Below, piece after piece: positions 1 to 8,036 of a DNA stretch of 8,036 nucleotides; the first letter of the stretch is position 1; each line of letters opens with the position of its first letter. The position numbers and the translations under genes are program-made. Under the pieces are notes generated by a model. The model was not told the DNA's origin and made no database searches. It saw only the letters and a program-made list of their open reading frames with translations. This stretch comes from a virus (lineage: Duplodnaviria; Heunggongvirae; Uroviricota; Caudoviricetes), in IMG/VR virus record IMGVR_UViG_2534682255_000011, positions 1-8,036 of that record; one strand, given 5' to 3'.

Positions 1-1531
1 TTACCGACGACATGAGATAGCCGCAGAAGTCCACCAGCGAATCCCCCTCACGCTTTATCGCCAGTGCTTCTTCTGATTTCTGCTGCTCATATAAAAGGCG
101 TCTGGCTTCGTCCTGATCAGCAAACCGTGTAAGCAGATGACGAATCACTACAGCAAGCTCACCTTCTATTTTTTCCGGCAGCATCGGATCGCGTTCGTTT
201 TCCGGTACAACCTCCGAAAAATTGAATATCACACGACGACGTGAGATCCCCCCGCTGCGGTCACTGAATGACATGGCGCTGTTGTTAACCGCCAGCACAA
301 CCGCCGGAATACGCGTTGAGTATGGCGCTTTGTGTTTCGGGTCAATTGCCACCTTGTCACCGCCCGTAATGGCCTTTATCCCTGCACCATCACCCGCGTA
401 GCGGGTCATATCCGGCAGAATAATCAGTGAAAAGCCAACCACTAATGCGCGTTCCCTTGCATCCTCCAGTGCCTTCATGCTTGCCGATACCGTGTTGGCC
501 TTACCTGCCAGCATGGTACAAATCTCCGCCATAACACTTTTACCGCTTCCACCAGGACCTGTTACCTCAATGAATAACTGCCAGTCGTACCGGTTCGCCA
601 GCACCATGAATAACGCCGCCAGTACGCGATCTGCCTTGCGGTCATTCTCAGCCACCGAACGGCGCAACCACTTCCAGAAATTCGGCGCATGTGTTGCCAG
701 CGTTTCCCCCTCTGCTGGTGGGCTGAAAGGTAATTCACTGGCAATTAACAACCAGTCGTTTTTGTTATGCTCCCGAAAATTACCAGTTCTGGTATCAAAT
801 ACCCCGTTACTGAATCCAATCAGGTTACGGGCTGCATTCCCCATTACGGGCAAACTTAACTTCATGGTATCGACCGCCGATTTGATGGCGTTCTGCGAAT
901 AGCTGATTTCCGCATCAATAAAAATCTGCGCCATAGTCCGCTGTAACTCTTTATCCTGTACCGGCTCCCATACAACACCGTTGTAGTGGTGAACGGTGTC
1001 AGAATCCGCATTGATTGCCAGTTCACCGCCATAATGTGCCAGGAGAACTTCGCCGCGCTGGCTTGCTCCCATCTGGTTAAGTGCCAGTGGTGTCGCGCTG
1101 TCTTCTGTTTTTTTCTTTGCCGGAAACCGGATAATCAGTCCGTCATCAATGTTTTTACGCTCACGGGCAAGGTATTCACGCCAGTTCTCACACTTCTGGC
1201 TGTGCATGCCATCAGGGTAATAATTCGCATTCTGTATACTTGCCGCCGCCAGCTTCTGACCAATTGCCTTAACCATTACAGGATCTAACTGTCCGGCTCT
1301 GAATATGCGCGCGGATGTGCGCCCATCAGGCACTATTTGCAGATTTCCGATCTCTTTCAGTTGTTCATCAGCCAGCACAACAGGTGGCTCATTATCTCCA
1401 GCCATACGCGCATCGTGTTCCTGCCATTGTTTCGCGTGTGCCCAGGCATCACTACCCGCGAAAATAATTACCTCTGTGTCTTTGTGTTTTATTCCGCGTG
1501 GCTGTTTTTTTACGTTCGGTGCCAGTTTCAT
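1..1531 (-). CDS. Replication protein, P4-family primase C-terminal domain with SF3-type helicase P-loop (P4 alpha-like); partial, C-terminus lies beyond window start
   Basis: Minus-strand frame is open from the ATG at 1531..1529 to position 1 with no stop; the ORF track omits it because it is incomplete. The translation contains a Walker A motif (VTGPGGSGKS) and the motifs LIGFSNGVFD, ITGGDKVAIDPKHK and RRRVIFNF, which are typical of the phage/plasmid primase P4-type C-terminal domain. The start overlaps the upstream ORF stop (ATGA at 1528-1531). An upstream G-rich run (GGGGGG) could serve as RBS. Confidence 0.8.
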   Translation of the reverse strand, partial: MKLAPNVKKQPRGIKHKDTEVIIFAGSDAWAHAKQWQEHDARMAGDNEPPVVLADEQLKEIGNLQIVPDGRTSARIFRAGQLDPVMVKAIGQKLAAASIQNANYYPDGMHSQKCENWREYLARERKNIDDGLIIRFPAKKKTEDSATPLALNQMGASQRGEVLLAHYGGELAINADSDTVHHYNGVVWEPVQDKELQRTMAQIFIDAEISYSQNAIKSAVDTMKLSLPVMGNAARNLIGFSNGVFDTRTGNFREHNKNDWLLIASELPFSPPAEGETLATHAPNFWKWLRRSVAENDRKADRVLAALFMVLANRYDWQLFIEVTGPGGSGKSVMAEICTMLAGKANTVSASMKALEDARERALVVGFSLIILPDMTRYAGDGAGIKAITGGDKVAIDPKHKAPYSTRIPAVVLAVNNSAMSFSDRSGGISRRRVIFNFSEVVPENERDPMLPEKIEGELAVVIRHLLTRFADQDEARRLLYEQQKSEEALAIKREGDSLVDFCGYLMSSV

Positions 1532-1770
1532 TTTTTCCCCCCTGCAACCAGCATTTCACGGATTTTGCGGATATAGCTTGCTGCACGTTTTTGATTTACG
1601 GCTTTATAATGGTCCACCAGCGTAAAATCACGGCGGTAGGTGATATTGCCTGGCGTAACGTGACGAATAACCACTCGTCCCCCACGTCTGGTGTCGCGGT
1701 AAATATCTCCGAGTCTGATTTCAGGCCGAGAGAGACCGCTGGCAGTAAAGCCAGAATTTTTCTTTTTCAT
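1528..1770 (-). CDS. Hypothetical small basic protein (80 aa), translationally coupled to the primase gene
   Basis: Complete ORF in the track. ATG at 1770 is preceded by AGGAAA about 8 nt upstream. Its stop overlaps the primase start (ATGA). No recognisable motif. Confidence 0.5.
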   Translation of the reverse strand: MKKKNSGFTASGLSRPEIRLGDIYRDTRRGGRVVIRHVTPGNITYRRDFTLVDHYKAVNQKRAASYIRKIREMLVAGGKK

Positions 1771-1800
1771 AGTTTTATTTTCCTGTCAGCAGTTCCGGTT

Positions 1801-1974
1801 TTATTTCCGCACGAATACAGAGTTCAGAAAAAATTCAGGAGAACCAACAATCTCATTACTTTTCAGTCGGCATTGTGATTTCACTTTCCCTTTATCCAGG
1901 TAAACCAGTACGCGTCCGGTGAAATCATCTGGCACATTAAGCACTACGGGTACATGCGCTTCATGATTATGCAT
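1801..1974 (-). CDS. Hypothetical small protein (57 aa)
   Basis: Not in the ORF track (below its length cut-off). Hand translation gives MHNHEAHVPVVLNVPDDFTGRVLVYLDKGKVKSQCRLKSNEIVGSPEFFLNSVFVRK with no internal stop. ATG at 1974 is preceded by GGAGGA with an 8 nt spacer and overlaps the stop of the upstream 197-aa gene (ATGCATAA). Confidence 0.4.
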   Translation of the reverse strand: MHNHEAHVPVVLNVPDDFTGRVLVYLDKGKVKSQCRLKSNEIVGSPEFFLNSVFVRK

Positions 1975-2560
1975 GGCTTACATCCTCCGTGAATTTTCTT
2001 CTGTAACGCGTCTCTGCCACATATTCCGCATAGTCCGACGCAATACTAAGAATCATTTCACCCTCTGACTTGTAGCCACTGGTATTGATAAGAAAATATG
2101 CAGCTTTCATCATGTCAGCAACGCTCAACAATGCGCCCGCTGCATCTTCCGGTGCGCCATCAAATTCCCGTTTCAGGGAATTAAAACGATCATCACGCAT
2201 GTTTACCCCCCCCTGAATGACCTGATAACCGCAACTGGTCAGCAATTCGATAAATTCCGGCAGTGTGCCGAAACAGCAATCATCACGCAGACGTTCGCGG
2301 GATACTTCAACGCCGTTTTCGTAGTGACTCACCATGCGTCCGGTAAAATGCAGATCATCATCGTGATGGCACGTTGACGGCTTAATCAGTCGCGCACGTT
2401 CCGCCAGTTCCAGCAATGCTTCAACGCTTCCGGCAATTGCACCATCCGGCAGGTGATAATTACTTACCACGCGTCCATTCTCCACGTTGACCAGTAGCTG
2501 CCCGGAAAATATCTCGTCAAACTGAATGCTGTTAAGGTCAGAAATTGACAGGTTATGCAT
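1967..2560 (-). CDS. Hypothetical protein (197 aa) of unknown function with Cys/His/Asp-rich segments
   Basis: Track ORF 1967..2578. The internal ATG at 2560 (MHNLSISD...) is preferred because AGGAGG lies 6-7 nt upstream and it overlaps the upstream stop as ATGCATAA. No family recognised by eye. Notable segments are CHHDDDLHF and RDDCCFGTLPEF. Confidence 0.6.
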   Translation of the reverse strand: MHNLSISDLNSIQFDEIFSGQLLVNVENGRVVSNYHLPDGAIAGSVEALLELAERARLIKPSTCHHDDDLHFTGRMVSHYENGVEVSRERLRDDCCFGTLPEFIELLTSCGYQVIQGGVNMRDDRFNSLKREFDGAPEDAAGALLSVADMMKAAYFLINTSGYKSEGEMILSIASDYAEYVAETRYRRKFTEDVSHA

Positions 2561-2777
2561 GGTGCACCTCCTGCACATCAGCCATGATAATTTTTCCGGC
2601 CTTATCCAGTGCCTGATCGGCTTTTAGCTGCACAAATGCTAAATAATGGAAGATGCATTCTGATTCTCTGGCTGCGTGTTTATGCGCCACACCAGCGATA
2701 GCAGAAATCTCAATAAGTGAATCCATCAGCGTTTTGATAGCGTCTACCGCTGCATCAGGCCATGTTGCATTACACAT
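2553..2777 (-). CDS. Hypothetical small protein (74 aa)
   Basis: Complete track ORF. ATG at 2777 overlaps the stop of the upstream 67-aa ORF (ATGTGTAA). A G-rich SD-like sequence (GGGGGTGG) lies just upstream. Its 3' end carries the SD for the next gene. Confidence 0.5.
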   Translation of the reverse strand: MCNATWPDAAVDAIKTLMDSLIEISAIAGVAHKHAARESECIFHYLAFVQLKADQALDKAGKIIMADVQEVHHA

Positions 2778-2973
2778 GTTCCACCCCCTGACGAATACGG
2801 GCGGCGAATACCATCACGCAGCCAACTGGGGATTGCTGGCGTGCTTCCTGTTCGCTGGTGGCCTCAATGGTAATCACGCGCGGTTGTGCCGTGCTCAGGG
2901 CGATAAAACGCCAGGTGAATTTATTCAGGTTGTGCAAGTCCCGCCCTTGCGGGTGTGTGGTATGATTTCTCAT
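2770..2973 (-). CDS. Hypothetical small protein (67 aa), first gene of the early operon; possibly Kil/Icd-like cell-division inhibitor (tentative)
   Basis: This is the C-terminal 67 codons of track ORF 2770..3513. The internal ATG at 2973 (MRNHTTHPQGRDL...) is preferred because GAGGT lies about 5 nt upstream and the long N-terminal extension would run through the promoter/operator region and the antisense of the divergent gene. The Kil/Icd-like call rests only on position (first small ORF of a P4-like early operon) and a vague resemblance (KFTWRFIALS...VMVFAARI). Confidence 0.45.
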   Translation of the reverse strand: MRNHTTHPQGRDLHNLNKFTWRFIALSTAQPRVITIEATSEQEARQQSPVGCVMVFAARIRQGVEHV

Positions 2974-3008
2974 AGCTACCTCGATACTGTTGCTATCGTT
3001 GGTGGTCA

Positions 3009-3043
3009 GAGGCTGCGAAAGGACGGCAATCCTTTTCAGCCTC
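3009..3043 (-). promoter_or_regulatory. Stable imperfect hairpin in the 5' leader of the early operon
   Basis: GAGGCTG-cg-AAAGGA-cggcaa-TCCTTT-t-CAGCCTC: a 7 bp outer stem and 6 bp inner stem separated by a small bulge. It lies 36-70 nt upstream of the 67-aa ORF start. No U-tract follows on the minus strand, so it is not a canonical intrinsic terminator. Confidence 0.3.
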
Positions 3044-3068
3044 GTTTGCATTGAGTGATAAACACTCA

Positions 3069-3150
3069 ACTGGATTCCAGTATAATCACTAAGTGGAATC
3101 CACTTCAAGCGTTTTGTTTTGGTCTTTTTCGTGTATACTGGATTCCAGTA
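3069..3150. promoter_or_regulatory. Divergent promoter region with three related palindromic operator-like sites
   Basis: Perfect inverted repeats at 3069-3081 (ACTGGA-T-TCCAGT), 3091-3105 (AAGTGGA-A-TCCACTT) and 3136-3150 (TACTGGA-T-TCCAGTA), sharing the core TGGA-W-TCCA. Candidate -10 hexamers overlap them: TATAAT at 3081-3086 and TATACT at 3134-3139 on the plus strand, and on the minus strand TTGAAG (complement of 3104-3109), an 18 nt spacer, then TATACT (complement of 3079-3084). Confidence 0.5.
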
Positions 3151-3169
3151 ATCACAAAGGGAACCAGAA

Positions 3170-3349
3170 ATGGAAAGAGACCATATCAATAACAAATCAC
3201 AGAAATTACAGGCTCGCGCCCCGCATGAAGTTGTTGAGGCTATGGAGCAAGTAAAAGAAACAGGCGAGAGCACTGCGCAATTTATCGTTACAGCCATGCG
3301 AGGCGAGATCAAACGCCGCCAGCGCCGCAAGGCCAAAGAAGCGGAATAG
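3170..3349 (+). CDS. Small DNA-binding protein, ribbon-helix-helix-like (59 aa); putative regulator of the divergent promoters
   Basis: Not in the ORF track (below cut-off). ATG at 3170 with AAGGGA 7 nt upstream; TAG at 3347-3349. Translation is MERDHINNKSQKLQARAPHEVVEAMEQVKETGESTAQFIVTAMRGEIKRRQRRKAKEAE. The pattern fits a beta-strand, helix, turn, helix Arc/CopG-type layout with a basic tail. It is the only plus-strand gene and diverges from the operator region. Confidence 0.55.
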   Translation: MERDHINNKSQKLQARAPHEVVEAMEQVKETGESTAQFIVTAMRGEIKRRQRRKAKEAE

Positions 3350-3437
3350 TCCACCAGCAAGCCAGCACACTGATCACATTGCCCACCAGCCAACAAATCG
3401 CTATGATGTTTGGGCTTATGTTTAGTGTTTTCCCATT

Positions 3438-3470
3438 GGCGACCTCTGATCCGGGTCGCCTTTGTTTTGT
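3438..3470 (+). terminator. Rho-independent terminator downstream of the RHH-like gene
   Basis: GGCGACC / GGTCGCC 7 bp stem (3438-3444 and 3454-3460) with a 9 nt loop, followed by TTTGTTTTGT. The minus-strand orientation lacks a U-tract. Confidence 0.5.
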
Positions 3471-4051
3471 CACTGAATGCGGTTGCCAAAGTAAAACTCA
3501 GGCTGATATTCACGTATCAGCCTTTTTTCTTCTTCCTCCAGCTCACGCTTTTTGCGCTTACATGCCTGTAGCTCCCTCCCCTTCTGACTGGCACTTAACT
3601 GATATTGCTCTTTACGGCGAGAAAAGTCCTGTAATGCGCCCCACGGGATACCATAAGCCCCCGTTTTTCTGATTCCTGGTATCACATTCCTGAATACCCA
3701 GTTACTGAAACGATGGGCGAACGTGCCAGGAGTAACAGCTTTCCGACTTCTGGCGATCAGCTTGTAAAAACCGGATTCAGAAATGAGGCTATGATTTGGA
3801 TTTCCTCGAATACCGTAGCTTAAAGCGACGGTTTTCTTTTCATCCGCATCTAGTGCTTTTAGAGCATCGCGTGAGTTACTTATTTCCAGAGCAACACAAA
3901 CATCCTTTGCAACAAACCACGGATCGCCGTTCAGATACACCACGCGAACGTTCACACTATCAAAGCGCAGAACGACCAGATCACGAAAATCACAGAATTT
4001 TTTTACATGACGTGCGTCACCCTTGCCCGTCACGGCAATATTTTTATTCAT
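3470..4051 (-). CDS. Bro-N domain protein (phage antirepressor-like), 193 aa, with charged coiled-coil-like C-terminus
   Basis: Complete track ORF. The N-terminal region VRVVYLNGDPWFVAKDVCVALEI...ALKALDADEK matches the Bro-N signature. The C-terminal about 50 aa is K/E/R-rich. Confidence 0.8.
   Translation of the reverse strand: MNKNIAVTGKGDARHVKKFCDFRDLVVLRFDSVNVRVVYLNGDPWFVAKDVCVALEISNSRDALKALDADEKKTVALSYGIRGNPNHSLISESGFYKLIARSRKAVTPGTFAHRFSNWVFRNVIPGIRKTGAYGIPWGALQDFSRRKEQYQLSASQKGRELQACKRKKRELEEEEKRLIREYQPEFYFGNRIQ
3500..3530 (+). terminator. Second plus-strand intrinsic terminator-like hairpin, embedded in the 3' coding end of the Bro-N gene
   Basis: AGGCTGATA / TATCAGCCT 9 bp perfect stem (3500-3508 and 3515-3523) with a 6 nt loop, followed by TTTTTTCTTCTT. 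Confidence 0.4.
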
Positions 4052-4071
4052 TTCTTTTTTACCTCACATAC

Positions 4072-4096
4072 AAAAAACCCCGCATTGCACGCGGGG
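4072..4096 (-). terminator. Rho-independent terminator after the int-alpA unit
   Basis: On the minus strand, CCCCGC-gtgcaat-GCGGGG is followed by TTTTTTG (plus-strand 4078-4096 hairpin preceded by an A-run at 4072-4077). It lies 15 nt downstream of the AlpA stop. Confidence 0.6.
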
Positions 4097-4110
4097 TATG
4101 AAAGATATTA

Positions 4111-4314
4111 TTAGTGGGGATTGGCCTGTTCTCGTTGTTTATCTAACCATGCTTCTACATCTCTACGGTGCCAGGTATGTCGTCGTCCAATTCTGAACGG
4201 CTGAGGAAAACCATTATTCTCATCTTTCCAGAAATTGATGAATGCACTCATTGCTCCATATCGCAAGATTTTCATTACGTCTTTAGTAAATAAAATATCT
4301 TCATTGGTATTCAT
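4111..4314 (-). CDS. alpA: AlpA-family (Vis/excisionase-like) small DNA-binding regulator
   Basis: Track ORF 4111..4335. The ATG at 4314 (MNTNEDILFTKDV...) is preferred because GAGGAGG lies 8 nt upstream; the 4335 start would overlap the int stop and has a weak RBS. Small size, position immediately downstream of a P4-type integrase, and a basic/aromatic C-terminal half fit AlpA-like regulators. Confidence 0.7.
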   Translation of the reverse strand: MNTNEDILFTKDVMKILRYGAMSAFINFWKDENNGFPQPFRIGRRHTWHRRDVEAWLDKQREQANPH

Positions 4315-4327
4315 TTGCTGAACCTCC

Positions 4328-5566
4328 TCAACCATTTACTACTCTTAAACCTTTCATACCACCGGATCTATTAATTACCCCTTTTCTCGCATCATCAAAA
4401 AAATCACCGACCCATTGCATCATGATCTTACGCTGTTCTAGATAAATAGTTCTATTATAAATATCTCTTATTTTATCACCACTTTTATGCGCCAATGCAG
4501 CCTCGATTACATCGGGGTTAAATCCCTCCTCATTTAAAAGCGTACTCCACATTGAACGAAAACCATGTAACGTTACAATCCCTTTGAACTTACTGGCAGC
4601 AATTGGGGTCTTGATAGTATTCCTCCCCATAGGCGCATCTTTTGTTCTGGAGGAAAAAAACACATAACGCCCTCTTTTTATTTCCTGCATTGTTCTGAGG
4701 ATACTAATAGCCTGTGATGACAAGGGAACAACATGTTCACGATGGCATTTCATTTTATGCGCGGGGATAATCCACAAGCCAGAATCAAAATCAATCTCTG
4801 ACCACTCTGCTTTAATCGCCTCACCTGGCCTGACCATTGTCAATATCTGGAATAAAAGTGCATTATGAGCTATTTGATAGGTATGAGGCACACTATCCCA
4901 CCAGCTCAGAAATTCAGGCAATCTTTCAACAGGTAGTGCTGCTAATGATTTATTTTTCTTTCCTGTGAATGCAGTCTTTATCTTAAGTAATGGATTTGCT
5001 TTCAATGCTCCACAATTTACAGCATAATTCATAATTTCATTTAATCTTGATATTAATTTTTTTTGCAACGCATTCTTATCGGATACGGCATCCAGAGCAT
5101 TAATAGCTACTGGTGCTGTAATTTTTTCTATACTGTACTTACCAAAGAAAGGAACAAGATATTTGTATACTTCATATTCGATATTATACAGCGTAGGTTT
5201 CCGCAATTCAGATCCCTTTTTAAAAGCGAACCATGCATTAGCAACAGCTTCAAATGTCTGTAGATTTTTTAGTGACATCTCAATTTTACGATTTTTCTTC
5301 TCCGTCACTGGATCAACTCCACGTGCAATCATTCGCCGAAGTTCATCACGTACTTCCCGTGCTTCCGCGAGTGAGAATTCAGGAAAACGTCCTATCGTGT
5401 ATGTCTGCCGTTTCTTCGTTATCGGATGGCTATAACGGAAACGCCACACTTTCCCACCGGCTTTACTCACATTCAGCAATAAACCGAACCCATCATAAAC
5501 GGCATAGTCCTTTTCACGTGGTTTCATCCCCTTAACTTCAGTCACGGTTAATGGCTTTACCGACAT
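4328..5566 (-). CDS. int: Tyrosine site-specific integrase, P4-like
   Basis: 412 aa. The N-terminus (LTVTEVKGMKPREKDYAVYDGFGLLLNVSKAGGKVWRFRY) matches the arm-binding domain of P4-family integrases. The C-terminus has HGFRSMWST...IRDIYNRTIY, consistent with the catalytic H/R/Y region. GAGGG lies 6 nt upstream of the ATG. The gene is visibly AT-rich compared with its neighbours. Confidence 0.9.
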   Translation of the reverse strand: MSVKPLTVTEVKGMKPREKDYAVYDGFGLLLNVSKAGGKVWRFRYSHPITKKRQTYTIGRFPEFSLAEAREVRDELRRMIARGVDPVTEKKNRKIEMSLKNLQTFEAVANAWFAFKKGSELRKPTLYNIEYEVYKYLVPFFGKYSIEKITAPVAINALDAVSDKNALQKKLISRLNEIMNYAVNCGALKANPLLKIKTAFTGKKNKSLAALPVERLPEFLSWWDSVPHTYQIAHNALLFQILTMVRPGEAIKAEWSEIDFDSGLWIIPAHKMKCHREHVVPLSSQAISILRTMQEIKRGRYVFFSSRTKDAPMGRNTIKTPIAASKFKGIVTLHGFRSMWSTLLNEEGFNPDVIEAALAHKSGDKIRDIYNRTIYLEQRKIMMQWVGDFFDDARKGVINRSGGMKGLRVVNG

Positions 5567-5727
5567 CTATCGCCCTCATTTTTTAGTCCGTCATGTAGTC
5601 CATTCAAGCCAATAACAAGCGATAAACTAACTCATTATCAAGCAAAGAGAGGAAACTCATAAAATCACAACTCATTGAAAAGACTATGAAACGACACCAG
5701 AACATACAAACAGGTAAGAAATGTACC

Positions 5728-6735
5728 CTACATCCAAAATGACGCAATCCGGGAGTTTCGTGGCGTTCCGGTGATACTGCCGTCCGCCGCCGCCCGTTCA
5801 CCTTCACGAAGCCAGATCCCCTGGTTATTCAGTTCGCGTTTCTGCTCAGGGGCAATCAGCCCGCGACAATGCGGACACATCAGACGGGCAGCCTGACCGG
5901 CAGCCACAAAATCCGGGTTATTCCGGTATCCGGTCATGTTATCCATCACCGGCTGAAAATATTCCCCGCAGTGCGGACACGGCCAGTACCACCGGCGGCG
6001 GTCTCCCCGGTTATACAGTGACAGGATCCCCGTTGTTGGCGGTGCCTCATGTGCGCCACCACAACGCCATTTGGTATCGGTGATATCCCGCCCCGGTGAA
6101 CTCTCGACCAGGGTCATCCCCGAGGACATAAAGGTGGTGGTACGCTTTGAGGCCAGCGTGAAGGCATCCCCTTCCCCGTCCACATTTTCAGGGAAACGGT
6201 CATAATCCGTCAGCGCCACACGACGGTAATCCGAAGAGGAAAAGACGGTGATCGACGGCCAGCCAATCTTCAGGAAGGAGCCGTCAAGAAACATTTTATC
6301 GTGGACGTTGTTGTCATTACGGGAAGGACTGAGGCGCTTGCTGACCTCCGGACTGTGGCGAAACGTCCTGGAAAGACGCGTTCTGGAATGCTCACGCGCC
6401 TTCGTCTCAGTCATCTGCACCACCAGCATATCCGCCGGATCACAGATGATGCCGTACACAATCCAGCCATCAATCAGCCCTTCGGTTTTCCCGGTTCGCG
6501 CAGGTCCCACAAACACCACCGCGTCATATTCACGGGCTGATAATGTATTAATGGGGTCAATCATATAGGGCGTCAGCGATGACTCCCACGGACCGGAAGT
6601 ATTGGCTCCCCGTGGAACCCGCATATAACGCCTGATGGCTTCCGCTACTGGTAACCGGCTGGGTGGGCGAAACAGCGAGGCCACTTCGCGCCAGATATCG
6701 GATGCGCGGCTATGGCTCTCGTTCACCTGATTCAC
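5728..6735 (-). pseudogene. Terminase large subunit (lambda gpA-like), N-terminal 335 codons only; truncated
   Basis: The translation aligns by eye with the lambda gpA N-terminus as recalled from memory (SLFRP near the start; CPHCGE zinc-ribbon-like motif; GIWLREG), and VFVGPARTGKTE looks like a P-loop. The ORF stops at 5728 at roughly half the length of lambda gpA, and the 160 bp downstream are AT-rich non-coding sequence running into int. The track start is GTG at 6735, overlapping the Nu1-like stop (GTGA). Confidence 0.8.
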
Positions 6736-7208
6736 ATATCGGCCTCATCACAACAGTCAATGACTGCCTTTTCCAGTGTGTCGCGGATCTCATCAACCAC
6801 AATCTGTACTTCATTCAGTTGTGATGCAGTCCACCCCCTGTCCCTCTCCAGCCGGTCAGGCCAGGTTTCCAGTACCTGAACTATCGCTTTCACCACGACA
6901 GAAAAGGACCGCCTGACATCACTGACTGGCACAAGCTGAACAGTTTCATGCTGAAATTTAAGACGCTCGCGCTCGGACTGATACCATGCCTTACGAGCGT
7001 GAGGATCCATATCCTCATCTTCGGAAGATGGTGGTTTTTCCAGCAACGAAGTTATCAAATCCGTCAGGAGATACAGTTTTTTCTTTTCATTACTGCCTGG
7101 TGCAAGAGGAACATCCGCCATTCTGGCGGCAACAGTCTGCCGGTGCAGACCTGAAAGGGCTGCCAGTTGATTAATATTTAACTTCATATTTTTCAGCTCG
7201 CCGTCCAT
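6732..7208 (-). CDS. Terminase small subunit (lambda Nu1-like)
   Basis: The N-terminal KLNINQLAALSGLHRQTVAARMA resembles the Nu1 HTH region (lambda EVNKKQLADIFGASIRTIQNW, from memory). GGAGGG lies 6 nt upstream of the ATG at 7208; an alternative start at 7187 (MKLNIN...) aligns better with lambda. The stop overlaps the terminase large subunit start. Confidence 0.8.
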   Translation of the reverse strand: MDGELKNMKLNINQLAALSGLHRQTVAARMADVPLAPGSNEKKKLYLLTDLITSLLEKPPSSEDEDMDPHARKAWYQSERERLKFQHETVQLVPVSDVRRSFSVVVKAIVQVLETWPDRLERDRGWTASQLNEVQIVVDEIRDTLEKAVIDCCDEADM

Positions 7209-7384
7209 TTACATCCCTCCACATAAACCGCAGAACAGAAGTGACTCTGTTTTTTTGTAAAGAAATGCCGCCATATAAAGATGTCGAACAAAAAACAACC
7301 ACAATCATCATCTTTTTAATACTAACAGCATTAAAAACAACAAGTTACCATCATGATGATGATGACGATAAAATCACAAAAATG

Positions 7385-7420
7385 CGCCTTTTTCCGCGCC
7401 CGCCCGCCCCGTGTTCAGGC
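7385..7420. other. Candidate lambda-type cos site (cosN-like GC-rich core) upstream of the terminase small subunit gene
   Basis: Minus-strand reading gives GGGGCGGGCGGGCGCGGAAAAAGGCGCATTTTTG, resembling the lambda left end GGGCGGCGACCTCGCGGGTTTTCGC (from memory). It lies about 180 bp upstream of the Nu1-like start and is followed by an AT-rich tract. Exact cut positions are not determinable from sequence. Confidence 0.4.
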
Positions 7421-7669
7421 CCACCCCACCAGGAGGACCCGCAAAAATGATAATGGTTATCATTTGCAACAAAATCCAGTTTCTTCCACCATCGCACCGG
7501 ACTGGCGACTATGAGGGGACAACACCGCGCTCCGTTAACGCGGTAAACCCCGGTGTGTATCGTTTTTGATTATCCCCGCACACTCTCGCAGAGGAGTCTC
7601 CCTGTCGGGCTGCGGTCTCTGTTAATGCAGGAATACGGCGACAATACCGCGCATGAATAATAAGGTCGC

Positions 7670-7894
7670 TCAACACACTGGCTGTAATGCAGCGGATACC
7701 ATGCGGCATTTAGCGGCATTCATCGTACACTCAACGGTTAGCTCTTCATTCGTGGCATTCACCTGAAAGGTCCTGGAGTGTAATTGCGTACATTTACCAC
7801 TGAACGAACCTTCAACAAGAACACGACCACGCTGCAAAATACGGAACGGAATTGTTCCCTGAAAAGGCTTTACGGTTACCAATAATTTCTTCAT
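7670..7894 (-). CDS. Hypothetical small protein (74 aa) between the lysis module and cos
   Basis: Track ORF 7670..7912 begins at TTG. The internal ATG at 7894 (MKKLLVTVKPF...) has GGAGAA 5 nt upstream. Four Cys residues; no recognisable family. Confidence 0.4.
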   Translation of the reverse strand: MKKLLVTVKPFQGTIPFRILQRGRVLVEGSFSGKCTQLHSRTFQVNATNEELTVECTMNAAKCRMVSAALQPVC

Positions 7895-7917
7895 GCATTC
7901 TCCGAATAACAAAAATA

Positions 7918-8036
7918 CTAGTTAATACACTGAGTGCGGATATATTCCTGAAGCATTCTCAATGCTGCCTGGTCGCTGATGATTCCGTCTCTGATACCGA
8001 GAACGTTTCGTCCAGCAACCGGAGAGAGTTCGACGG
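7918..8036 (-). CDS. Rz-like i-spanin, C-terminal fragment (partial; start beyond window end)
   Basis: Minus-strand frame is open from the window end to TAG at 7918-7920. The C-terminus ...AALRMLQEYIRTQCIN resembles the lambda Rz C-terminus ...QKQLEGTQKYINEQCR (from memory). Its position just upstream of cos and Nu1 is as expected for a lambdoid late region. Confidence 0.45.
   Translation of the reverse strand, partial: VELSPVAGRNVLGIRDGIISDQAALRMLQEYIRTQCIN

Follow-up and report, generated by a model that had tools for sequence, protein, structure and literature searches.

The window analysed here, the whole 8,036-nucleotide stretch of the IMG/VR virus record IMGVR_UViG_2534682255_000011 (Caudoviricetes), contains a junction between the large terminase subunit gene (terL) of a lambdoid prophage and a phage satellite that begins with an integrase gene (int). 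It matches Escherichia coli chromosomes (O157:H7, O103:H2 and others) at 98.5-99.1% identity, and a locus of E. coli O157:H7 3-5-1 (L001) was used as the reference, a window position being the L001 position minus 20000. All the genes of the window except one lie on the minus strand. The prophage will be called the helper. In the order of transcription, the features found around the junction were the following.

5728-6735, minus strand: 5' fragment of the helper terL, 335 aa; Pfam GpA_ATPase over the whole profile (E 6e-82); ends in ...FWM*, the stop codon coming from the satellite
5726-5737, no strand: core of the attachment (att) site, attL copy, CCCTACATCCAA, recurring as CCCTCCATCCAA at L001 15297-15308
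5584-5601, minus strand: int-proximal att arm, in which GGACTA occurs twice in the same orientation with a 12-bp spacing (read on the plus strand, TAGTCC at 5584-5589 and 5596-5601)
4328-5566, minus strand: tyrosine integrase of the P4/CP4-57 family, 412 aa; Pfam Arm-DNA-bind_3, Phage_int_M and Phage_integrase; catalytic residues R, HxxR, H and Y visible
4111-4335, minus strand: AlpA/Vis-like helix-turn-helix gene (alpA); weak Pfam HTH_17 match (E 0.005); RefSeq helix-turn-helix regulator with its start placed at 4314
4077-4097, minus strand: terminator-like hairpin directly 3' of alpA, nine pairs (six G-C) followed by a T-run, a consensus match only

As an earlier note on these letters had read it, the terminase ORF (open reading frame) stops at 5728 after 335 codons, and the Pfam scan found in it the ATPase domain and no nuclease domain. 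Between this ORF and a P4-type integrase read from the same strand, the note had placed an AT-rich spacer. The spacer measures 161 bp (5567-5727), is non-coding and has 36.6% GC, and the composition shift pointed out in the note amounts to 57.2% GC in the terminase fragment against 39.4% in int. Looking for a direct repeat and for the missing part of terL at the far end, as had been proposed, gave both. The second half of the gene lies on the same strand of L001 (14183-15313, annotated in RefSeq as 'terminase gpA endonuclease subunit, missing N-terminus'), 10.4 kb from the first (25731-26735), and matches Pfam GpA_nuclease with E 2e-82. The 12-bp core CCCT[C/A]CATCCAA is present at both junctions, its second copy being 10,429 bp off and adjoining this other half. 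When L001 15309-25737 (10,429 bp, including one core copy) was removed, the two halves joined into a single ORF of 707 aa without internal stops that carries GpA_ATPase and GpA_nuclease; the core codes there for FWMEG, residues 333-337, between the two domains.

The corresponding empty site exists in nature. A 612-bp reconstruction was covered over at least 80% of its length in 495 E. coli genomes, with at least 99% identity in 417 matching records, and unoccupied sites were also found in 12 sequenced phages. The reconstructed junction is 100% identical to intact terminase genes of other E. coli genomes, and in such intact genes the homology to the window starts exactly at 5726. The duplicated core, the missing 3' half, the exact restoration and the empty sites together exclude a point mutation or a deletion and indicate a site-specific insertion. 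The note's choice of a separate integrative element over an internal deletion was therefore right, and a terminase ended by a point mutation with no att repeat at the far end, which it had named as the contrary outcome, was not what we saw. Related genomes whose terL halves would not join in frame, or had unrelated DNA between them, were not encountered either. Region 5567-5740 is the attL site, made of the 12-bp core plus the GGACTA arm. The insertion is precise, brings no replacement sequence, truly splits terL and gives back the exact gene on removal. No gene for a transfer RNA (tRNA) or transfer-messenger RNA (tmRNA) was detected in the window with ARAGORN and the site lies in terL, so the unusual, non-tRNA target suspected earlier is real. 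In L001 the late genes next to the split terL and the key satellite genes are all on one strand. Altogether, we consider it very likely that window 1-5737 is the int-proximal 5.7 kb of a 10,429-bp satellite of the phage-inducible chromosomal island (PICI) type, inserted site-specifically at codons 333-337 of a gpA-type terL of a lambdoid prophage, at the boundary between ATPase and nuclease and co-directional with the late operon; this judgement includes the helper-gated excision model and the late-gene integrase lineage presented below. The element in terL belongs to the helper-embedded PICIs (abbreviated HE-PICI), an arrangement first described in 2023 by Tommasini, Mageeney & Williams, with Eco567.11capE of E. 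coli NRG857c as founder (11capE from here on; PMC10111431).

The sequences of the four att sites allowed the exchange to be located. On the minus strand attB reads TTGGATG-G-AGGG followed by GCC (TTGGATGGAGGGGCC inside terL), and attP reads TTGGATG-T-AGGG followed by TAC (CTTCTTCTTGGATGTAGGGTAC); at the core mismatch attL has T and attR has G. This pattern places the exchange within or next to TTGGATG (CATCCAA, 5731-5737). The satellite-derived T creates a TAG stop one codon past the crossover, which means that terL receives no replacement sequence and is left disrupted. Two IMG/VR contigs (L109 and L137) have an attL core with G instead of T at the mismatch (TTGGATGGAGGGTAC), and their terL fragment lacks the TAG stop there. 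Such a core is expected where the exchange sometimes takes in the mismatch; it speaks for insertions that happened separately, or for a crossover region reaching across that position. In the reconstructed attP the GGACTA-type repeat occurs four times in one orientation, as two pairs with a 12-bp spacing, one at -82.5/-70.5 and the other at +135.5/+147.5 relative to the crossover (4 copies observed against 0.29 expected, a number not attained in any of 2000 shuffles). All 13 members of the integrase clade that were checked have GGACTA at least once, 23-74 nt before int; five had two exact copies and most others a degenerate second copy 12 bp downstream. The geometry agrees with the annotation of the P4 attP and with the published HE-PICI spacing.

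The remaining features of the window, from the helper end to the left edge, are listed next.

7246-7455, minus strand: putative cos region of the helper, upstream of the gene in the small-terminase (terS) position, including ACGGGGCGGGCGGGCGCGG, which we take to resemble lambda cosN
6732-7208, minus strand: helper gene in the terS position, DUF1441 (Pfam E 4e-48; gene order)
3470-4051, minus strand: BRO-N domain protein, anti-repressor-like (Pfam Bro-N E 1e-18; phrog_2593 anti-repressor), corresponding to the 'Bro zone' of Gram-negative PICIs
3170-3349, plus strand: YlcI/YnfO family gene, the sole plus-strand gene of the element, with a counterpart at the matching place in 11capE
2770-2973, minus strand: Icd-like gene (RefSeq, host cell division inhibitor; phrog_6196, transcriptional repressor)
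1967-2777, minus strand: two small genes of unknown function, phrog_2512 and phrog_5146 (ORF calls, PHROG)
1528-1770, minus strand: DUF4222 gene (Pfam PF13973), which precedes the replication gene in this satellite family
1-1531, minus strand: satellite replication gene, 'DNA primase family' (D5_N, DUF5906 and Pox_D5), with its N-terminal ~510 codons in the window and the rest beyond the left edge (whole gene annotated at L001 19717-21531; Pfam and PHROG DNA primase matches)

A small ORF at 1775-1974, adjoining the phrog_2512 and phrog_5146 genes, is frameshifted. The N-terminal arm-binding domain of the integrase matches solved domains of CP4-like integrases, and the AlpA/Vis-like gene presumably codes for a protein that is both excision directionality factor and regulator. 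The hairpin at 4077-4097 separates int and alpA, as a unit, from the remaining satellite genes. On the helper side, the match to the window ends at 7654 in relatives of the O157:H7 type and at 7950 in those of the O103:H2 type, which points to a mosaic joint in the helper lysis region (window 7655-8036).

The order of the insert between the two cores is int, AlpA-like gene, BRO-N gene, YlcI, Icd-like gene, the two genes of unknown function, DUF4222, primase, a group of GGTGAACAGT repeats, a small ORF, a single-stranded DNA-binding protein gene (SSB), a first cos-like block, a 64-aa ORF, a fusion of ClpP-type protease and major capsid protein, a second cos-like block and a 93-aa ORF. The four zones of PICI organisation are thus present: integration (int and alpA), Bro, replication (primase and SSB) and late. 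No tail, lysis, portal, terminase, psu, sid or delta gene was found in the insert by Pfam and PHROG scans of its proteins, and an Rfam scan detected none of the P4-type immunity RNAs (C4, isrK) at E up to 0.1. The helper in L001 is lambdoid and has retained the full set of lambdoid genes. Gene content and order therefore indicate a Gram-negative PICI organisation, neither P4 nor capsid-forming PICI. Of the 'P4/PICI-like' label given earlier, the PICI part stood, and the P4-like part was dropped, as psu, sid and delta are missing and the helper is lambdoid.

The capsid fusion gene is 52% identical to the one of the helper. The cos-like block near the 93-aa gene (L001 ~15990-16215) is 81% identical to the region upstream of the helper gene in the terS position, and the other (L001 ~18560-18750) is 69% identical to the helper region. 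Both have the same orientation, flank the 64-aa ORF and the protease-capsid gene and are 2.5 kb apart, an odd arrangement for one replicon; the weaker copy may be left over from the capture of the capsid gene. Four iteron-like repeats of the GGTGAACAGT type lie directly past the primase gene (L001 19526-19699), where PICI replication origins are reported, and this makes them the likely origin of the satellite. The 93-aa ORF (L001 15679-15960, WP_000133409.1) is directly past the better cos copy, in a small-terminase-like position, and its protein is identical in three different carriers. From this placement it is a candidate packaging-specificity factor. It had no solved-structure homologue and no Pfam family, the sole match being phrog_1561 (unknown function), and its kinship with a known packaging-redirecting protein was accordingly rejected.

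The occupied junction was found in 74 of 5426 complete E. coli genomes (O157:H7, O103:H2, O111 and others), carriers being for example O157:H7 3-5-1, FDAARGOS_293 and O103:H2 strain 129. The helper prophages concerned are of three different builds and differ in their early regions. Of 37 IMG/VR loci whose integrase is at least 76% identical, 36 carry the terL junction, and six clearly different terL alleles are represented among them. One junction on six alleles, together with the alternative mismatch base in two loci, argues for independent insertions. Outside E. coli, the same terL codon and the same core are used in Salmonella (integrase 76% identical) and Rahnella (68%), and in Klebsiella quasipneumoniae (55%) and Buttiauxella (58%) the equivalent position of the lambda-type gpA is used with a different core. 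In one IMG/VR contig (L112, 1100-1330) the same integrase and attL arm are joined to chromosomal intergenic DNA beside a LysR-type regulator gene, at a site that shares TTTTGGATG, an off-target integration comparable to those known from the published HE-PICIs.

Two further E. coli loci deserve mention. E. coli O111:H21 strain 15A (L005, 9026-10426) has a sister element at the same terL codon, in which a RepA-family helicase replaces the D5-type primase, indicating that the replication module was swapped. Its att-int junction region has 88% DNA identity to the window element, its AlpA-like protein and 93-aa ORF are unchanged, its capsid gene is near-identical and its late zone is the same. In E. 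coli O111:NM FWSEC0005 an unoccupied, otherwise intact terL is frameshifted by a 44-bp tandem duplication (L004, 2004-2047) that lies 200 bp from the core; three O111:H8 strains have it as well. The resulting two-piece match of the empty site was considered as an excision scar and rejected, the duplication being unrelated.

The integrase is only distantly related to that of 11capE (25% identity and 86 bits in a pairwise alignment). In a neighbour-joining tree of 30 sequences its identities were ~40% to integrases of tmRNA sites, 32% to P4 Int and 23% to 11capE Int. Integrases of the late-gene group formed one cluster nested among those of tRNA and tmRNA sites and P4, and 11capE Int was the most distant sequence (21-24% identity to all others), with P4 and the tRNA/tmRNA-site integrases in between. 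We examined the context of 12 relatives with 44-76% integrase identity, from eight genera. In 12 of the 12, int is located within a late-gene cluster, where it immediately follows phage late genes and has their orientation, and the late gene upstream is clearly truncated in several. The position of alpA directly after int is common to 11capE and nearly all the relatives, and a DUF4222 gene is at the equivalent position in 11capE and in 10 of the 12 loci (all except L087 and L101). The places where int was found in the relatives are as follows; fractions are profile positions covered in the PHROG scan.

After a truncated gpA ATPase fragment: Salmonella, Klebsiella
After a gene in the terS position and an uncalled terL fragment: Rahnella, Buttiauxella
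After a protease-capsid fusion (393/626): Salmonella
After a major capsid fragment (140/321): Raoultella
After a tail-tip protein (252/903): Providencia
After the gene following a tail-completion gene (131/174): E. coli
After a baseplate gene: Enterobacter
After a portal gene: Pantoea
After a complete head-maturation-protease-like (Pa193_gp24) gene: E. coli
After a Terminase_2 terS: E. coli

A scan with one genome per species gave no relatives above 40% identity, and its matches served as outgroup: at 34-40% identity, 20 of 22 were just downstream of a tRNA or tmRNA gene. To judge from these sequences, the integrase probably belongs to a second lineage of P4/CP4-57 type that prefers prophage late genes over tRNA genes and is separate from the published HE-PICI clade. 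We also lean, with less assurance than for the insertion itself, towards a wider view in which helper embedding arose at least twice, and in which this clade (~44% identity or more) extends over at least nine genera of Enterobacterales (Escherichia, which carries the window element, and the eight others of the relatives) with its own doubled GGACTA arm motif, and inserts in gpA-type terL and after Terminase_2 terS, portal, protease-capsid fusion, major capsid, tail-completion-region, baseplate and tail-tip genes. The terL branch could then gate the packaging of Shiga-toxin (Stx) phages in enterohaemorrhagic E. coli.

By analogy with 11capE (PMC10111431), a helper with the satellite integrated would be unable to make a complete terminase, and before excision could express nothing of it beyond an ATPase-only fragment. 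Upon induction, anti-terminated late transcription from the gene in the terS position and the terL fragment would run into int and alpA. A crude consensus scan showed no promoter-like (minus strand) or terminator-like site between the stop of the terL fragment and int; with the hairpin after alpA, this suggests that helper late transcription would reach int and alpA and that their proteins would appear only late in induction. Int and AlpA would then excise the satellite and restore terL. This is what was measured for 11capE, in which the composite was excised and replicated first, and afterwards the satellite was excised and the gene restored (PMC10111431). Replication of the satellite would start at its own origin, and the helper terminase would package it by way of its cos copy, into heads that the satellite capsid protein may have built or altered. 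The earlier note had the prophage crippled by the element. The splitting of terL is shown, but the disruption is probably reversible and regulatory and not permanent.

Several points weigh against this interpretation. Excision and packaging of the satellite are inferred from the analogy, and the parts played by its capsid gene and its two cos-like copies are putative. The exact 36-nt attP junction of the excised form was absent from viral and metagenome contigs, and in sequenced phage records the element was absent apart from the cos block and a distant primase match. In the published HE-PICI system virions could not be recovered (PMC10111431). The read-through model depends on the crude consensus scan just mentioned, the integrase tree has no support values and a small sampling, and several of the relatives were seen at the int-proximal junction only, the split of their target being deduced from truncation or position.

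The missing circular junction is also what would be expected of a dead fossil, that is, a site-specific insertion whose composite no longer excises or transfers, with the split terL as a pseudogene in a decaying prophage. The frameshifted small ORF would fit, and so would the facts that many O157 prophages are defective (PMC2669165) and many HE-PICI helpers look truncated (PMC10111431). However, int, alpA, primase, SSB and capsid genes are intact, the terL halves join without an internal stop, the 612-bp junction is undecayed, as its full identity to intact genes indicates, the L001 helper has its full lambdoid gene set and several independent insertions are visible. We regard a fossil as unlikely. 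Much less probable is an accident in which an ordinary tRNA-targeting P4-like island used a secondary site in a prophage gene. The integrase is of the P4/CP4-57 type, with distant relatives beside tRNA and tmRNA genes, and the chromosomal copy at the TTTTGGATG site demonstrates that off-target events do occur. Against it, the terL junction recurs in nearly all the IMG/VR loci, over the six alleles, and in the 74 complete genomes, and the same codon is occupied in Salmonella and Rahnella; no tRNA-associated copy of this integrase was found, and every relative examined at 44% identity or more is in a late-gene cluster. This explanation is largely refuted.

The last possibility is that a lambdoid prophage and a P4-like element became joined into a chimeric phage through illegitimate recombination or a deletion, an origin that had once been proposed for Sp7 of O157 Sakai. 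The helper-type capsid gene and cos block captured by the element are of the kind that such events would leave, but the boundaries are exact and bear a direct repeat, nothing is missing from the helper, whose terL halves join perfectly, and the identical junction occurs on different helper backgrounds. For the junction this origin is refuted, and we give it the least credit of the three; late-gene capture by recombination may explain the capsid and cos segment of the satellite. The site-specific insertion of a PICI-type satellite into terL is thus the reading that we retain.

The empty site has a bearing on Shiga-toxin phages. It is 100% identical in the Stx1 phage VT1-Sakai, in CP-1639 and in one Stx2a phage, and nine more records match it with 95.3-99.8% identity (those of six Stx2a phages and one Stx2d phage, besides ASU11 and 1720a-02). 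The cos-like block matching the satellite is present in 11 of the 12 phage records with the empty site. No stx gene was found in the helpers examined here. These matches suggest that the natural target range of the satellite includes Stx phages, and the family could switch off and restore their packaging enzyme. If a second, unrelated integrase clade has indeed acquired the late-gene habit, this habit would have been selected for its consequences (the satellite controls a helper gene and profits at no cost from both the replication and the late transcription of the helper) and not be a quirk inherited with one enzyme. Such satellites would also be commoner than the about 5% of E. coli genomes estimated for HE-PICIs (PMC10111431), since surveys seeded with one integrase miss them. 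For annotation, 'terminase pseudogenes' adjoining an integrase should not be taken as prophage decay.

Among the known satellites, capsid-forming PICIs share with the window element a satellite-encoded major capsid protein and protease. They differ in that the window element has no terminase, portal or head-tail connector of its own; the ClpP-capsid fusion is the sole head gene in its 10.4 kb, and with a single head gene the satellite cannot build and fill a head unaided. P4 is similar in the integrase family (Arm-DNA-bind_3 N-terminus, 32% identity), in an attP with tandem arm repeats spaced 12 bp at similar distances on both sides of the core, and in having a small Vis/AlpA-type helix-turn-helix gene, a D5-type replication protein and an Icd-like gene. 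Unlike P4, the window element lacks homologues of psu, sid, delta and epsilon and, according to Rfam, a CI/C4-type immunity RNA; its helper is lambdoid and not P2, and its target is a protein-coding phage gene and not tRNA-Leu.

Gram-negative PICIs of the EcCICFT073 type, which include O-island 51 / CP-933C / Sp7 of O157 (Fillol-Salom et al. 2018, PMC6092414), likewise combine int and alpA with a primase-type replication gene that has an origin, and share one-way transcription, a lambdoid cos helper, a capsid homologue, a cos site and a length of about 10-15 kb. They are located at chromosomal sites away from their helpers, whereas the window element is inside its helper, and PICI attachment sites have been stated to be never used by prophages (PMC6092414). 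We also considered whether the element was Sp10 or another known island of Sakai and rejected this: the Asadulghani paper has no such description, and Sp7, the lambdoid/P4-like chimera of that paper, is an EcCICFT073-type island at a chromosomal site.

The closest resemblance is to the HE-PICIs. 11capE shares its gene order with the window element (int, alpA, Bro-zone gene, YlcI, Icd-like gene, DUF4222, primase, small ORF, SSB, capsid gene) and the primase is 82% identical. As in the window element, HE-PICIs have a short block of att identity without replacement sequence and split their target, share a block with the helper cos region and have rare off-target chromosomal copies. The published survey used a 400-bit integrase cut-off and described 14 target sites, which do not include the site of the window element; it ascribed late-gene targeting to a single integrase clade, whose attP has a motif considered unique, a doubled TGTATTGC at about -81 and +132 (PMC10111431). 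With 86 bits to 11capE Int the window integrase is below that cut-off and outside that clade, and the doubled TGTATTGC motif had no match in L001 at up to 3 mismatches, the doubled GGACTA being present instead. The two published terminase sites are in Terminase_1-family genes, at positions 132 and 246 (PMC10111431), and the window target is of the gpA type (Pfam GpA_ATPase/GpA_nuclease). The captured capsid gene also differs, a ClpP-capsid fusion here and a lambda E/D pair in 11capE. In the text and supplements of PMC10111431, of which the largest table was covered in part so that the absence is not absolute, 'GpA', the core sequence and the accessions of four carrier genomes do not appear; beyond that paper and those citing it, we found no publication on a second integrase clade or a gpA site. 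Compared with the published HE-PICIs, the integrase lineage, the gpA-type terL target at a domain boundary and the arm motif are novel.

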